Below are positions 2,268 to 8,068 of a DNA stretch of 64,000 bases, one piece after another. The stretch is from a virus. Lineage: Duplodnaviria; Caudoviricetes. Numbering within the stretch: the stretch's first letter is position 1; every line of letters starts with the position of its first letter. The DNA lies in IMG/VR virus record IMGVR_UViG_3300020577_007013. One strand, 5' to 3'. Both the position numbers and the translations under genes were made by a program. A model generated the notes under the pieces. The model did no database searches and was not told the DNA's origin. It was given only the letters and a program-made list of their open reading frames with translations.

Positions 2268-4436
2268 TTATGAGACCATCTCAAAAACCTCTGCCTCTTT
2301 CTCATTGACGAGATACTCTTTTGAGACTTCTTTATGAGTCACACAAATGATTTGTTCATACTCTTCATTAAGAAGGTTTTCGAAGACATTAAGAGAATTC
2401 TCGTCTTCTGCAGAAGAGTCGATTTCATCAAGTAAGTAGAATCCTAAGTTCTGAATCGAAGTTAATGCCACTCTAAATGACAGAGACAAAGCTTGTTTTT
2501 CAAATCCTGCAGCGACCCCTACAGACTTGTAGATTTTATCATCTGGACTATAAAAGAAATGTACAGACTTATTGTCTTTCTTGAAATCGATAAGATATCT
2601 TCCATAGGTTTTCGTAAAGAACTCATTCATCTTAGTCTTGATGTATGTAGATCCTTCGTCGATCACATAAGAAGAAAAGTCTTTGTCTAGAAGTTTTCTC
2701 GTTTCAGTTAAGACTCTTTGTCTAGAGCTACAGTCATTGTACTCATTTTCCTTATCTTCTATCGATTTCTTATTTTCCTCTTCTTTTGTTTTTACATCGC
2801 TATTGAACTTTAATGCTTCTTCTCTCTGTTTCTTTTTCTCTTCATAGACAGTTATAAGTTTCTCAGTTTCTTTGTACTCTGATTCTTCTTCAAAAATAGG
2901 TCTCTCCAATTTTTTAGGCTCTACTAATTTTAAGAGACTATCGATTTCAATTTTCTTACTCTCAATGAGAGCTTCTAAAGTGAGTTTTTCTTTGTCTGAA
3001 TTTTTATTCTTCTTATCGATTTCTTGATTTTTCTCTTTGTCTCTAGTAAAGTCTTTTTCAATTTGTCTACATTTTTCTAATGAAGCTCTGAAGTCTTCAG
3101 AAGGTTTCTCTATTTTAGGAAGATCATTTAACAGTTTTTCGAACTCTTCCTTATTTTCTTCAAGAGACTTTTTATTTGCAAGATTCAGATCATTTGCAGA
3201 CTTGTCATCTTTAAATTTTGTAATTTTCTCTTTTGATTCAGATAAAGACTTCGACTTCTCAGAAAGAAGTTCTGAGTTTTTCTTAAGTTCATTTTCAATA
3301 TGAGAAGGATCTTCCTCAAAAGGAGTACCGCATTTAGAGCATTTTCCTTCTTTACAAAGTTCTAGTGATGACTCTAATTGAAGCCTAGATGAATTTAAGG
3401 AATTGACTTCCTCTTGAATTGTATTTATCTCGTCATCAGAGACTTCACATTTTCCTATTCTCTTAATTTGAATTTTGGAGATTTTGTCTTCTATCGATTT
3501 GATTTTATCTTCATAGTTCTTTGAGTCTTTGAGATATTGTGTATATGATTTATTTGTTAGATCGAATTCATTCTCGAGTTTTTCATATTTTTTGAGTTCG
3601 ACTTTATTTGTTTTCTCAAGCTCATCGTCGATCTCTATAGATGGAAGAATTACAAGCTTCTTAATTTTTTCGTTTGTTTCAGTAATTTCCTTTTCTAGAG
3701 TTTCTTTTCGGAGAACTTTTTTCTCGTATTCTTCTATGTCTTTCTTATTTTGATCATAAGACTCCAAGAGTCTCTCATACTCTCTTTTACTCTCTGAAAG
3801 TTTAGAGAACTTTTTGTTGATCTCAGTGATGTCTTCCAAGTCCTGAACAATTTGATAGTTGAATTTCACTTGTTTCAGAACTGAGATTTCTGAATCTAGA
3901 GCAAGACATCTGAGTTTTAAGGTCTCTATATCATCTTTGAGATTTTGTGAGATTTCTTCTATTCGTTCAAGTCCCAAAATCTGCTTGAGTTTTTTGAGCC
4001 TATCAGAAGGATTTTCAAAGAGAAGTGAAGTAGCTTCGTGTTGAGTAGAAATGCTCGAATAAAGTATGAGTTTAGGATTATAGAGCTCTTTGATTTTCTT
4101 GACAGCATCTGAATTTTTGTATTCCTCTGTAGAATTAGAGACTTTAAGTAGACGCTCTGTCGATCCCTTAAGTTTGAGAATTACTTTATAGTCGTATTCG
4201 ACTCCTAAATGGGTGAATTTTATATAGAGCTCTGATGTCTCTACCCCGTCAGACCAATTGATGTATTCAGAAATTGACTCATAAAGTTCGTCAGTGAGGA
4301 GATAAGTAATAGCGTCGATAACTGACGACTTTCCAGATCCGTTCTTTCCGATAAGTATAGAGACAGGCTTTGTAAAAAAGAATTCCTTGTCTCTGACAGA
4401 TTTGAAGTTGACAAGTCTAAGGTAATTAATCTTCAT
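2268..4436 (-). CDS. SbcC/Rad50 (gp46-like) SMC-type recombination ATPase
   Basis: N-terminal LVNFKS and Walker A GKNGSGKSS, long coiled coil with central CSKC zinc hook, C-terminal LLDEID Walker B and VTH. Confidence 0.9.
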   Translation of the reverse strand: MKINYLRLVNFKSVRDKEFFFTKPVSILIGKNGSGKSSVIDAITYLLTDELYESISEYINWSDGVETSELYIKFTHLGVEYDYKVILKLKGSTERLLKVSNSTEEYKNSDAVKKIKELYNPKLILYSSISTQHEATSLLFENPSDRLKKLKQILGLERIEEISQNLKDDIETLKLRCLALDSEISVLKQVKFNYQIVQDLEDITEINKKFSKLSESKREYERLLESYDQNKKDIEEYEKKVLRKETLEKEITETNEKIKKLVILPSIEIDDELEKTNKVELKKYEKLENEFDLTNKSYTQYLKDSKNYEDKIKSIEDKISKIQIKRIGKCEVSDDEINTIQEEVNSLNSSRLQLESSLELCKEGKCSKCGTPFEEDPSHIENELKKNSELLSEKSKSLSESKEKITKFKDDKSANDLNLANKKSLEENKEEFEKLLNDLPKIEKPSEDFRASLEKCRQIEKDFTRDKEKNQEIDKKNKNSDKEKLTLEALIESKKIEIDSLLKLVEPKKLERPIFEEESEYKETEKLITVYEEKKKQREEALKFNSDVKTKEEENKKSIEDKENEYNDCSSRQRVLTETRKLLDKDFSSYVIDEGSTYIKTKMNEFFTKTYGRYLIDFKKDNKSVHFFYSPDDKIYKSVGVAAGFEKQALSLSFRVALTSIQNLGFYLLDEIDSSAEDENSLNVFENLLNEEYEQIICVTHKEVSKEYLVNEKEAEVFEMVS

Positions 4437-4674: not shown

Positions 4675-4946
4675 TATTCCTCCACTATAGGCTTTTCAGC
4701 TTCTTCTAAATCAGGCTCGTCATCTTCAGTGTCTACAAATTGACCAATTTCTACCATATCGATCATAAGACAGTAGACAGTTTCACAGCAGTCTAGAAAT
4801 TGCTCTTCTGAAATGGACTCGAATGGTATTTTTAATGTGTTGAGAATTGAAAGAACAGTGGAGATTTCGAGAGGGATTTCTCCCTCTCCTATCTCTTCAG
4901 ATTCTTTAGGTTCTATGTAACCTTGAAGTATCTCTTTTGCTGTCAT
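4674..4946 (-). CDS. hypothetical acidic protein, paralog of 4426-4674
   Basis: translationally coupled to both neighbours; shared CCE motif. Confidence 0.6.
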   Translation of the reverse strand: MTAKEILQGYIEPKESEEIGEGEIPLEISTVLSILNTLKIPFESISEEQFLDCCETVYCLMIDMVEIGQFVDTEDDEPDLEEAEKPIVEE

Positions 4947-5902
4947 TCTTCCTCTGAAGACTCGATCTCTTGATCTACTTCCGATTCCTCTACTTGAGAA
5001 ATAGGTTCAGATCCTTGAGCTTCTCTTCGACGTTGACGTCCTTCTTCAGAAGCATTAGCCATCTTCTCTATAGAGATCTCTCTATGATATTGAATGACTT
5101 TCTGTTTGATTTCTTCACAAAGATCTCGGTTATCCATGAGCAGTTGAGAACTTTTATCAAGTCCTTGCCCTAATCTCGTTTCACCGTATGCATACCAGCT
5201 TCCTGATTTTTTTACGATTTTGATCTTTTCTGCTTCTTCAATTATAGATCCTTCTTTGTTAAAGTAACCGTCAAACATGAGATCGAATTCAGCAATCTTA
5301 AATGGAGGTGAGACTTTATTTTTTACGAACTTAGCTCTCACTCTATTACCGATTTGATTATCACCTTTCTTTAGTGACTCAATTTTAGCGACTTCAATTC
5401 TTTGTGAAGCAAAGAACTTAAGAGCTTTACCACCACTCGTTGTTACTGGAGATCCGTAAGAGTTATGGGAAAGAATTCCGTTTGTAAAAAGATTATGATT
5501 GTCTTCGACCTCAAGATCATAGACTTTAATTTTTTCTTCAGTCTTCTCAATTTGACCTGTCTTCCAATTTCCATTTTCAAATAAATAGAAGTTTCCATTA
5601 TACTTTGAATATAAGAGACCTACTTCTAGATAAGAAGAGAACTCTGAAGATTTATCCAATCTGGCAGAAAGTCTATGTTCTTTTGAGACTTCTAATTTTC
5701 CATTTACTAAATATTTTTCACTATCAGGCTTCCTCATAAGCCTTTTAATTTTCTTGAATTCTTCTTGTTTTGTCGTGTGGTTAAAAGACTTGACTTTGAT
5801 CTCTTTATCAGAAATGTCTATAGACTCGTTCTCCTTCAAAGAAGTCTCATCTATTCCTATTTTTGAGAATAGTTCTCCCATTTTTATTTTTTCAGTTACC
5901 AT
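4943..5902 (-). CDS. recA: split-intein C-fragment (147 aa) fused to the C-terminal half of RecA
   Basis: intein block B SKEH, block F VYDLEVEDNHNLFTNG, terminal HN/S junction, then RecA SYGSPVTTSGGKALKFFASQRIEV...KNKVSPPF...KSGSWY; RBS AGGGGA upstream. Confidence 0.92.
   Translation of the reverse strand: MVTEKIKMGELFSKIGIDETSLKENESIDISDKEIKVKSFNHTTKQEEFKKIKRLMRKPDSEKYLVNGKLEVSKEHRLSARLDKSSEFSSYLEVGLLYSKYNGNFYLFENGNWKTGQIEKTEEKIKVYDLEVEDNHNLFTNGILSHNSYGSPVTTSGGKALKFFASQRIEVAKIESLKKGDNQIGNRVRAKFVKNKVSPPFKIAEFDLMFDGYFNKEGSIIEEAEKIKIVKKSGSWYAYGETRLGQGLDKSSQLLMDNRDLCEEIKQKVIQYHREISIEKMANASEEGRQRRREAQGSEPISQVEESEVDQEIESSEEE
5462..5902 (-). mobile_element. split intein C-terminal fragment (IntC)
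   Basis: residues 1-147 end in ILSHN; Asn codon at 5462-5464 followed by Ser+1. Confidence 0.88.
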
Positions 5903-6851
5903 TTGATTCCCCTTGTATTTTTTCAGATTTTATAAATTCGAATAGCTCGTTTTTACATTTTTCGTAATTGTTCATTAAGTCCATTTCCCAAATTATGTAG
6001 TATCTGTAATTATTTTCTAATATCCATTGCTTTTTCCTTATATCATTCACGAGATTTGATTTTTGAAAGTTGTTTAATTCTACAGAAGATGTATAAATTC
6101 TAGGATTTGAATGAACATAATCCCCATTAACTTCAATGACAGTCTTATCATTAACTAAAAAATCCACACGATAATTTTTACAAAGATACCTTTCTCTTCT
6201 AAAATCAACCTTAGCTTCAAGAAGAATGTCGAAGACCATTCTCTCTATTCTAGTCATCTTTTTATTAATGGGATTCGGCTCTCCTAAAATTTTTAATTTG
6301 TAGTTTTTCCAAAGTTTTTTGAGAACTTTAGAAGAGATCTCATAAGATATACAAAGCTGATTCCAAGTCATGAGTCTTGTGTCATTAAGAAAATTTTTCC
6401 ATTTCTCTACACTCCAATTTTTAATTTGACTGGGAGACTTAGTGGTCGTCTCCTTAAGTCTCTTTTTAAGTTCTTTGTTTTCTCTAAAAAATCCAGTAAG
6501 TCTTTTAGAAGAATAAAAAGAGAGTCCTAATTCTTCCCAGATAATCCATAGTTTATGGGTATGGGGAGTGGAGTTAATGTAGTCTACGAGAATCATTTTG
6601 TCTTTTTCTGTTAGCTCTCTTCTTTTTAAAAGTTTTGTTTTTTTAACTTTAGAGACTCTTTCAGGAGAGTGCTTTACCCCTAAAAGAGAGTCTCTAATTT
6701 TCTTTCCAACTTCAGGTCTTTTGGTTCCTAAAATTCTCCTTCCAGTTAATTGTCCTAAACACTTTCGACTGCATACTTTTTTCTGTCTGACTTTTAAAAT
6801 TGACTCACAGACTTCACATTTTCTTTCCACATAGATTAGTTCATTAATCAA
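5892..6851 (-). CDS. free-standing homing endonuclease, Vsr-like/DUF559 PD-(D/E)xK type, between the recA halves
   Basis: N-terminal CxxC...CxxxC and NUMOD-like segment; C-terminal YRVDF...IEVNGDYVH...DIRK...IIWEMD. Confidence 0.85.
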   Translation of the reverse strand: MINELIYVERKCEVCESILKVRQKKVCSRKCLGQLTGRRILGTKRPEVGKKIRDSLLGVKHSPERVSKVKKTKLLKRRELTEKDKMILVDYINSTPHTHKLWIIWEELGLSFYSSKRLTGFFRENKELKKRLKETTTKSPSQIKNWSVEKWKNFLNDTRLMTWNQLCISYEISSKVLKKLWKNYKLKILGEPNPINKKMTRIERMVFDILLEAKVDFRRERYLCKNYRVDFLVNDKTVIEVNGDYVHSNPRIYTSSVELNNFQKSNLVNDIRKKQWILENNYRYYIIWEMDLMNNYEKCKNELFEFIKSEKIQGESNGN

Positions 6852-7541
6852 TTAGAATTGAATTTCGAGTTCAGTATTACTACTGAAACAACCAATATTA
6901 CTTCTAGTTTGGTTAATGAATACCAACGTTGTGTTTGTCTTCTGAACTGCTGCTGTAAGCTTTCTAAGAGCTTGACCCATAAGTCTCGCTAAGATCGCCA
7001 TGTGTGCATCACCCATGTCTCCTTCAGCTTCTGCTCTAGGTACAAGTGCAGCGACTGAGTCGACTACTACAATGTCTAGACCACCTGATTTTACGAATGC
7101 ATCAACGATCTCTAATGCTTGTTCAGCACCGTCAGGTTGACTGACTAAGAGTTCATCGACATTCACTCCTAATTTTCTTGCCCAAACTGGATCTAATGCA
7201 TGTTCTACGTCGACAAATGCACAAATACCGTCATTCTTTTGGGCTTGAGCTATAAGATTGAGTACAAGTGATGTTTTTCCACTAGATTCATTCCCATAAA
7301 TCTCTATGATCCTTCCTCTAGGAAATCCACCTATTCCAGAAGCTATGTCAAGAGAAAGAATATCAGTTTCTATATGAGGAAAATCGATTCTATTTGAATC
7401 CATCCTCATGATAGTTCCTTGTCCGTAAGCTTTTTCTAAGAGAAGTATTGCCGGATCTAGACTCTTCAACCTCTCTATTTTTGAAAGCCTAGGTATTGAT
7501 TCTGCAGTCTTAGAGACTACATCATTAAATGTTTCTGCCAT
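6852..7541 (-). CDS. recA: N-terminal half of RecA fused to IntN
   Basis: [49 protein letters not shown]. Confidence 0.95.
6855..6890 (-). mobile_element. split intein N-terminal fragment (IntN, 12 aa [12 protein letters not shown])
   Basis: block A start CFSxxT directly after Rec[11 protein letters not shown], followed by a TAA stop. Confidence 0.85.
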
Positions 7542-7555
7542 TTTATTTATCTCCT

Positions 7556-8068
7556 TTATTTATCATTTCGTATTCCTGAAAAAGCCATCCTAAACCAGTT
7601 CTCTCTTTCATCTGTCGTGATTGGTTTGTTAGTGACAGGATGGAGAAGTTTGTCAAGACGACCGTGGAAAAAACGAGCACAAAGTACCAAATTTGAAATT
7701 TCATATTTCAGTTCACCACTCTGTGCTCTTGATACAATGTGACAAGTGTCTAAAGTTTTTGACAGTAGACTGAACTCAATCGGAAAAGTCTTTAACACAT
7801 AGATCTGTTCATCCTTTGTAAGGATGTTCCAAATTCTACAAGTCTTATCTCTCAGTTTGACTTCCTTGACCAAATCTATCCAAATTTTATTTTCTTCCTT
7901 CTTTTCTTCTTTCCTATCTTTGTCTTTTACAAGCTTTCTGCCATACCTATCAAAGCAGCTTTTTTGCTTTCCTTCAGTAAGGCATTTATGAGTCTTCATA
8001 GTCTTGCGAAGGCAATGTCCTTTATTGCAATGACTAGAGAACTCTTCGAAAGTCTTGATTTTTTTCAA
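7556..8068 (-). CDS. HNH-like nuclease
   Basis: RDKTCRI...CHIVSR...NLVLC...HGRLD beta-beta-alpha-Me pattern. Confidence 0.55.

Follow-up and report, generated by a model that had tools for sequence, protein, structure and literature searches.

Can a phage recA gene that is interrupted by a stop codon in the middle of its coding sequence still give rise to RecA? This question is raised by a locus in a 64,000-nucleotide (nt) stretch of IMGVR_UViG_3300020577_007013 (hereafter the window, meaning that whole stretch), which belongs to an uncultured wastewater jumbo phage with a genome of about 254 kb. On the minus strand of the window, three tightly packed genes, identified from their open reading frames (ORFs), encode a fractured recA and a nuclease. 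To judge by its sequence, the locus is a genuine fractured gene with an S1-type atypically split class 1 intein, whose N-terminal fragment (IntN) has 12 residues and whose C-terminal fragment (IntC) has 147. We consider it highly probable that RecA is rejoined post-translationally through trans-splicing by this split intein, and that the nuclease is the driver of its homing.

A recA gene fractured within an intein

The first of the three genes (7541..6855, minus strand) encodes a protein of 229 residues. Its codons 1-217 (6891..7541) form the N-extein of recA, with the Walker A motif GNESSGKT, the Walker B motif IVVVDSV and a Pfam RecA match for the protein (E=6.5e-85, profile positions 1-200); a Shine-Dalgarno sequence, AAAGGAGA, which contains AAAGGAG and was read directly from the DNA, lies upstream at 7550..7557. 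The RecA sequence ends at the residues NIG and is followed by the 12 codons of IntN (6855..6890), which hold Cys1 and intein block A in the pattern common to its relatives, and then by a TAA stop codon (6852..6854). The gene for a free-standing homing endonuclease of the EDxHD, Vsr-like type (5892..6851, minus strand; 319 codons) opens in the codon right after that TAA. Its start is uncertain (TTG at 6851 or GTG at 6830), and its TGA stop (5892-5894) overlaps the start of the third gene by 11 nt. The third gene (5902..4943, minus strand) has a Shine-Dalgarno sequence of its own, AAGGGG, 6 nt upstream of the ATG (5909..5914, by direct reading), and encodes 319 residues that begin MVTEKIKMGELF. 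The first 147 of these (5462..5902) are IntC, with block B (S73-K-E-H76), block F (VYDLEVEDNHNLF, which includes D129) and block G (H146-N147); IntC ends SHN, and the C-extein of recA (4943..5461) then runs from Ser+1 (SYGSPVTTSGGKALKF...) through the C-terminal domain and an acidic tail to the stop codon at 4943-4945. Pfam assigns this protein to RecA profile positions 196-258 and to RecA_C. The original prediction had described a recA fractured in two genes, and its layout proved correct to the base, including the ORFs and the TAA: the 12-residue IntN with Cys1 and block A is found in ORF 7541..6855, and the separate IntC gene with its own ribosome-binding site, block B (SKEH), block F and HN/S is found in 5902..4943.

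The whole insert, from IntN through the nuclease gene to IntC, occupies 5462-6890 (1,429 bp) and has a guanine-plus-cytosine fraction of 0.31, as does IntC itself, versus 0.38-0.39 for the recA exteins. The spliced RecA predicted from the two genes has 389 residues, aligns end to end, over the RecA core and the C-terminal domain, with intein-free alleles of 383-387 residues, and has an L2 loop of the same length as that of the intein-free relative L011. Because the three genes abut or overlap on one strand, and no terminator-like site was found between them on that strand in a promoter and terminator scan (at background), they are probably co-transcribed. A late promoter belonging to the locus finds no support: TATAAATA, the late-promoter word of T4, shows no enrichment (6 occurrences vs 4.3 expected) and does not occur in the locus.

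The motifs of a class 1 intein are all present in the two fragments. Cys218 of the first protein, the position-1 nucleophile, follows NIG at the point where intein-free alleles go on NIG-G-YGSP, and it is complemented by the block B, F and G residues of IntC and by Ser+1. H76, D129, S145, H146 and N147 are invariant in two alignments (A2 and A3), and at the downstream junction 81 of the 110 split relatives read HN/T and 22 read HN/S. Cys1, the block B His, the block F Asp, the His-Asn pair and Ser/Thr+1 are kept across split members that are merely 33-49% identical. A profile of the family matches inteins of solved structure: 6y75/6tmm (1.4e-9), Spl DnaX (2.5e-9), gp41-1 (2.5e-5), 9hth (2.6e-5) and VidaL (E=0.32). 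The division into 12 and 147 residues corresponds to the S1 type, in which the break lies near the N-terminus after the first beta-strands; at the same place, contiguous relatives carry a variable linker of 5-10 residues.

Intein-free alleles and mobility of the element

When aligned recA-N sequences were used as the query, RecA proteins without an interruption were found in close relatives of the phage. One of them, P0162 (387 residues), is 94% identical to the predicted spliced product and 98% identical over the N part; three others (P0163, P0164 and P0166, the last on a 247-kb contig) are 81-82% identical. These four are collinear with the joined recA-N (minus IntN) and recA-C, with no indel at the junction, and the C-extein is collinear with P0162-P0166. 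The sole difference there is one of Gly versus Ser+1: P0162-P0164 and P0166 read NIG-G-YGSPVTT, and the product of the window would read NIG-S-YGSPVTT. Since these alleles align without a gap, the insertion point is fixed, Ser+1 replaces the native Gly, and the element is a presence/absence polymorphism. The earlier expectation that splicing restores NIG-SYGSPVTT in the L2 loop thus holds for the position of the junction, which is in L2, and fails for the native sequence, which has Gly. A further protein, P0001, joins the same IntC (100% identical over 160 residues) to a recA-C tail of the P0162 type, so the element is found in at least two recA backgrounds. Together, these alleles show that the 1,429-bp element is mobile. 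A scan of viral contigs with P0162 returned relatives of only about 50% identity, and a phage collection held no close relative of the locus, just recA stretches 65-73% identical.

The gene between the halves encodes a protein with an N-terminal CxxC...CxxxC motif, NUMOD-like stretches and a C-terminal nuclease domain. An AlphaFold2 model of this protein had predicted local distance difference test (pLDDT) values of 80-93 over residues 200-310, and its best Foldseek match was 3r3p, the catalytic domain of I-Bth0305I (template modelling score, TM, 0.79 on the target; E 6e-4), followed by E. coli Vsr (1vsr, TM 0.61; 1cw0). The EDxHD homing endonucleases have I-Bth0305I as their prototype; this enzyme resides in a group I intron of recA, and the site that it cuts is in the part of the gene encoding the L2 loop (PMC3239194). 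Homologues located beside other split inteins all share D230, E240 and H247, and their conserved motifs include D244 and E289/D291. The fold search decided this assignment: Pfam gave only a weak REase_MTES_1575 match, and a sequence-only profile search of the PDB was marginal (3hrl, 0.05; 1cw0, 0.64). The claim that a Vsr-like endonuclease separates the halves was therefore right, from the fold matches and the conserved EDxHD residues.

In an activated-sludge run (X7), a variant contig links recA-N to IntN and the start of the nuclease gene. It differs from the window in recA-N only, and all 15 listed differences are at synonymous third-codon positions, with none in the element; these differences indicate purifying selection on the fractured gene. 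Over window positions 6810-7600, we also observed that the approximately 3% synonymous differences of this variant begin about 160 nt away from the element, and that neither the element nor the sequence immediately beside it differs from the window. This pattern looks like a co-conversion tract or a recent sweep or spread of the element.

Relatives with the same architecture

A profile of IntC was searched against 1.84 billion representative proteins, with 1,641 matches at E<=0.001 and 212 at E<=1e-10; our family counts rest on 156 proteins, mostly representatives of 50%-identity clusters. The split architecture is the prevalent one: IntC comes first, at residue 1-12, in 110 of the 156, and 33 others are contiguous. 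Split forms (IntC plus recA-C) have 267-302 residues and contiguous forms 505-532, and the full split architecture was recovered in loci from both viral and metagenome collections. The recovered IntN pieces have 11 residues (L006/P0161, L077 and P0100), 12 (the window, L001/L026 and P0080), 13 (L003, L004, L030, L039, L036 and P0157), 14 (L031 and P0104), 15 (L084), 16 (L087) or 18 (L103), and a stop codon 11-14 residues after Cys1 recurs in many independent relatives. All of these pieces start with C-[FVI]-x-x-x-T-x-[IV], which is block A, and the pattern C-[FV]-[ST]-x-x-T-x-[IV]-[ED]-[VIL] is common to IntN pieces of 11-18 residues and contiguous relatives.

Within about 10 residues of the L2 loop, the family uses several insertion sites, namely those that follow IG, GNPE and GNPETT. 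EDxHD enzymes occur in the sub-group that shares the site of the window, and GIY-YIG enzymes in the GNPE sub-group. In two loci, the intein is still split and no nuclease gene separates its halves (L030:3-1362, with a 145-nt gap, and L077:1552-4427, with a 45-nt gap); such persistence would be difficult to account for if the halves did not function in trans. Among GNPE-site members (L003, L004, L030, L031 and L039), we observed that IntC is 67-72% identical at the nucleotide level versus 52-68% for the flanking recA-C, which is what horizontal movement of the intein between diverged recA genes would produce.

Does the fractured gene still make RecA?

We considered whether the locus could be a dead gene, in which insertion of the nuclease broke an intein-bearing recA, the fragments stay apart, and a host or other recombinase is used instead. 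In favour of this, one relative (L006) has frame breaks in both IntC and recA-C, splicing is here a prediction from sequence, and the check for a second recA or intein, which found neither, covered the 64-kb window out of a genome of approximately 254 kb. In the window, however, the catalytic residues and both reading frames are intact. The exclusively synonymous differences in recA-N and the ratio of nonsynonymous to synonymous substitution rates (dN/dS) of IntC among split members, about 0.09-0.19 (approximate, as dS is saturated), are those of maintained genes, and both the retention of the architecture by the 110 family proteins and the persistence of nuclease-free split loci speak against a dead gene. 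We therefore regard a dead gene as improbable.

A second alternative is that the intein halves associate and hold the RecA halves together without finishing splicing. To model the association, recA-N residues 195-229 and residues 1-160 of the IntC-recA-C protein were submitted to complex prediction, each with an alignment. The interface score (ipSAE) was 0.81, versus 0.16 for the best control; in calibration, this mark was reached by 58 of 80 solved complexes and by 2 of 110 mismatched pairs. Runs shared at least 78% of contacts, and the partner pLDDT was at least 54. From recA-N, the modelled interface takes in exactly residues 215-229 (IntN and three residues of the extein); from IntC, it takes in 1-9, 35-38, 70-77 (block B), 125-130 (block F) and 138-148 (block G and Ser+1), with IntN residues 223-228 paired with IntC 6-8, 35-38 and 139-141. 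Canonical assembly of the 12-mer with IntC into a Hedgehog/intein (HINT) fold is thus plausible; the model speaks to neither proven binding nor splicing, and its pass may reflect likeness to known structures, because split inteins are among those solved. The 12-mer should nonetheless be mechanistically sufficient, since engineered S1 inteins with an IntN of 11-12 residues trans-splice (PMC3620165, PMC13014065). The model therefore supports association, which non-covalent rescue would share, and not chemistry. Docking alone, however, needs none of the catalytic and junction residues that are conserved family-wide, and an unspliced intein of 159 residues in the L2 DNA-binding loop would probably block filament function. 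We give this alternative even less credence than a dead gene.

Repair could also take place at the level of RNA or translation, through a group I or II intron, ribosomal bypass or readthrough of the TAA. In its favour, IntN and the nuclease ORF share a reading frame, broken just by the one TAA, and group I introns of recA can carry EDxHD nucleases (PMC2677866, PMC3239194). Nevertheless, an Rfam scan at E<=10 gave chance-level matches only and no group I or II intron, and the ORF fills the entire gap, leaving no space for a ribozyme core. IntC starts separately, from an ATG preceded by a Shine-Dalgarno sequence, and its frame is not that of the nuclease ORF. The frame relation across the TAA is itself not conserved, as it differs in L001; readthrough to give an IntN-nuclease fusion was rejected on these grounds of frame. 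Finally, no deletion, insertion or joint was found at the locus in the compared contigs, from an RNA library and DNA runs; this comparison used assembled contigs, which are blind to transcription and to RNA ends and can miss spliced forms that are rare. Repair of this kind is accordingly very improbable.

An artefact of assembly or sequencing at the TAA was tested and rejected, with nothing found in its favour and a likelihood that we take to be negligible. Four independent studies, one of a wastewater RNA library, one of an anaerobic digester, one of activated sludge and one with an unlabelled run, yielded assembled contigs that reproduce the locus. Two of these contigs span the whole locus with zero differences and may be the source of the window itself; two low-depth DNA assemblies (X6 record 8 and X7 record 15) bridge the TAA at 6852-6854 unchanged. 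Stop codons are also similarly placed in many independent relatives. The original prediction had been made to depend beforehand on the TAA not being an assembly error and on the absence of RNA-level removal. Contigs of all four studies keep the TAA, and neither an Rfam intron nor a joined form was seen; the agreement of the four studies, the lack of joints, the lack of an Rfam intron and the lack of ribozyme space make both explanations very unlikely.

Besides the limited reach of the second-recombinase check, several points weigh against rejoining by trans-splicing. The ligated RecA of 389 residues is a prediction from the gene sequences, and the contigs from the RNA library are no proof of transcription. 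Ser would take the place of Gly in the L2 loop of the spliced product. Pfam Intein_splicing matches IntC with E=1.6e-6 and 28.4 bits, below the curated cut-off of 35.8, as is expected of a piece that has no intein N-terminus. That the split falls in a loop is drawn from the complex model and the alignment: for the contiguous L002 intein, AlphaFold2 gave pLDDT <50 at residues 1-21 and 155-163, and this model, being unreliable over those first 21 residues, was not used to place the split. Lastly, no clear Shine-Dalgarno sequence was read before the nuclease gene.

We favour trans-splicing over these alternatives, and we infer the following course from co-transcription to nuclease activity. A mini-intein in the recA L2 loop would have been cut after its first beta-strands (S1) by an incoming free-standing EDxHD/Vsr-like nuclease gene. 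From the co-transcribed genes, RecA-N-IntN (229 residues) and IntC-RecA-C (319 residues) would be translated apart, each from its own Shine-Dalgarno sequence, and the 12-residue IntN strand would insert into the incomplete HINT fold of the 147-residue IntC. An N-S acyl shift at Gly217-Cys1, aided by block B Ser73/His76, would be followed by transesterification onto Ser+1, by cyclisation of Asn147, aided by His146 and block F Asp129, and by an O-N shift, to yield the 389-residue RecA with the junction NIG-SYGSPVTT and a predicted tryptic junction peptide, SNIGSYGSPVTTSGGK. The nuclease would cut intein-free recA alleles of co-infecting relatives (e.g. P0162), and repair would copy the 1,429-bp element, which constitutes homing. 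That trans-splicing gates recombination, as had also been suggested, finds no support here; on the simpler reading, the insert is selfish and spreads by homing, and the phage can tolerate it since RecA is restored through splicing.

Multi-piece relatives and neighbouring genes

Several relatives have more elaborate arrangements. In L103:570-4881 (IMGVR_UViG_3300024339_000114), a recA-like gene is divided into four separately translated pieces. Its order is recA-N with an 18-residue IntN1; an EDxHD nuclease gene; IntC1, the 7-residue extein TMYGDPT and a 28-residue IntN2; IntC2 with 14 extein residues; a second EDxHD nuclease gene, placed directly in the extein without an intein; and recA-C. 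Three proteins of 165-170 residues (P0080, P0100 and P0104) consist of IntC, a middle extein of 6-9 residues (TIFGNPETT, SYGNPE and TMYGDP) and a second IntN of 11-14 residues; they would be middle pieces of a three-piece RecA joined by two split inteins. L077 has a large contiguous intein 11 residues upstream of its 11-residue IntN. L029:3-3329 (Ga0265293_10023297) is one contiguous recA ORF with three inteins, one in the P-loop and two in the L2 loop, the latter five extein residues apart (G/CFSYNTRV...VHN/SPETT/CVTPDTMIEIE...SHN/TGG, with slashes at the junctions).

Two neighbours of the locus were examined by eye only. A 170-residue ORF (7556-8068, minus strand) directly upstream of recA has the look of an HNH-type nuclease. 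Its C-terminal part (...FFHGRLD...TTDERENWF) resembles the ORF that precedes recA in L077 (970-1548), and the gene is possibly a conserved neighbour. Downstream, a 722-residue ORF (2268-4436, minus strand) has an N-terminal Walker A motif (GKNGSGKS), long coiled-coil-like stretches and a central CSKCG motif, and looks like an SbcC/Rad50 (T4 gp46-like) recombination nuclease subunit.

Discussion

Our results lead us to lean, though only modestly, towards a broader proposal: that the locus is one of a large and apparently undescribed family of natural RecA inteins with an S1 split, in which an IntN of 11-14 residues is the shortest that evolution has selected for efficient in-vivo trans-splicing, which jumps among at least three positions within about 10 residues of L2, and in which some RecA proteins come in three or four pieces, with two orthogonal split inteins around a middle extein of 6-9 residues. 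A literature search found no report on a natural IntN of 11-14 residues or on split inteins of the recA L2 loop, with key subscription papers outside its coverage. Atypically split inteins named after UvsX from Lake Vida were reportedly screened in 2017.

Published natural IntN pieces range from 15 to 37 residues (PMC13014065, 2026), and the 15-residue IntN of PolB16 OarG has been termed 'the shortest characterized' (PMC10189870); the range of about 15-30 residues that the original prediction gave was close to this, and its suggestion that 12 residues may be among the shortest was right. The IntN of the window is shorter than the published natural record and is not the shortest in its own family, where 11-residue pieces exist, and the layout of the locus is already known. 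The locus leaves the understanding of split inteins unchanged. Its value is in part practical: a short IntN can be made as a peptide, which makes semisynthetic protein trans-splicing practical, and the literature has 11 residues for engineered, evolved inteins only. If true, the natural 12/147-residue pair would be a source of new, possibly mutually orthogonal ligation tools, and it comes with more than 100 diverged relatives, matched empty-site alleles, and nuclease-free and multi-piece versions. The locus is also a clean snapshot of a free-standing homing endonuclease gene invading an intein, with both alleles of the same phage recA at hand, and it marks the RecA L2 loop as a hotspot for such elements.

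The closest known layout is that of the fractured genes of environmental phages, gp41-1, NrdJ-1, IMPDH-1 and others, described by Dassa et al. in 2009 (PMC2677866). These have the same order of host-N plus IntN, free-standing Vsr-like or GIY-YIG nuclease, and IntC plus host-C. There too, the genes are on one strand and their frames overlap or abut, the hosts are DNA-metabolism genes of phages, and the chemistry is Cys1/Ser+1. Their inteins, however, are split canonically, with an IntN of about 100 residues and an IntC of about 35-50, whereas that of the window is broken after 12; furthermore, recA is not a fractured host in that study and appears solely as a host of nuclease-carrying group I introns. 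I-Bth0305I (PMC3239194, 3r3p), the best structural match of our nuclease, shares with it a multi-module N-terminal DNA-binding region and the recA L2-loop coding target, but it is located in a group I intron rather than inside an intein coding sequence, is 26% identical over the aligned domain, and has different N-terminal modules. The RecA intein of Mycobacterium leprae, as cited in PMC3239194, is by description also inserted in the L2 loop; it is contiguous and belongs to a cellular genome.

With respect to the position of the split, VidaL (16-residue IntN, PDB 6vgv/6vgw) and PolB16 OarG (PMC10189870) resemble the window in that a short IntN supplies the first strands and a long IntC supplies blocks B, F and G; both are also metagenomic and apparently phage-borne. 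They differ in their longer IntN (16 and 15 residues versus 12), in their host protein and in their distant sequence, and PolB16 has Ser1/Ser+1 where the window has Cys1/Ser+1. 9hth, which the family profile also matched, is a solved chain of a DNA-polymerase intein. Because the profile is nearer to Spl DnaX, gp41-1 and 6y75/6tmm than to VidaL, the S1 split of this family probably arose independently of VidaL. The engineered S1 inteins (Ssp DnaB S1/M86, with an 11-residue IntN, Ssp DnaX S1 and others; PMC3620165, PMC13014065) have the same split position and an IntN of the same size, 11-12 residues, and trans-splice with synthetic peptides; those are man-made cuts of contiguous inteins, whereas the window would hold a natural, selected pair.

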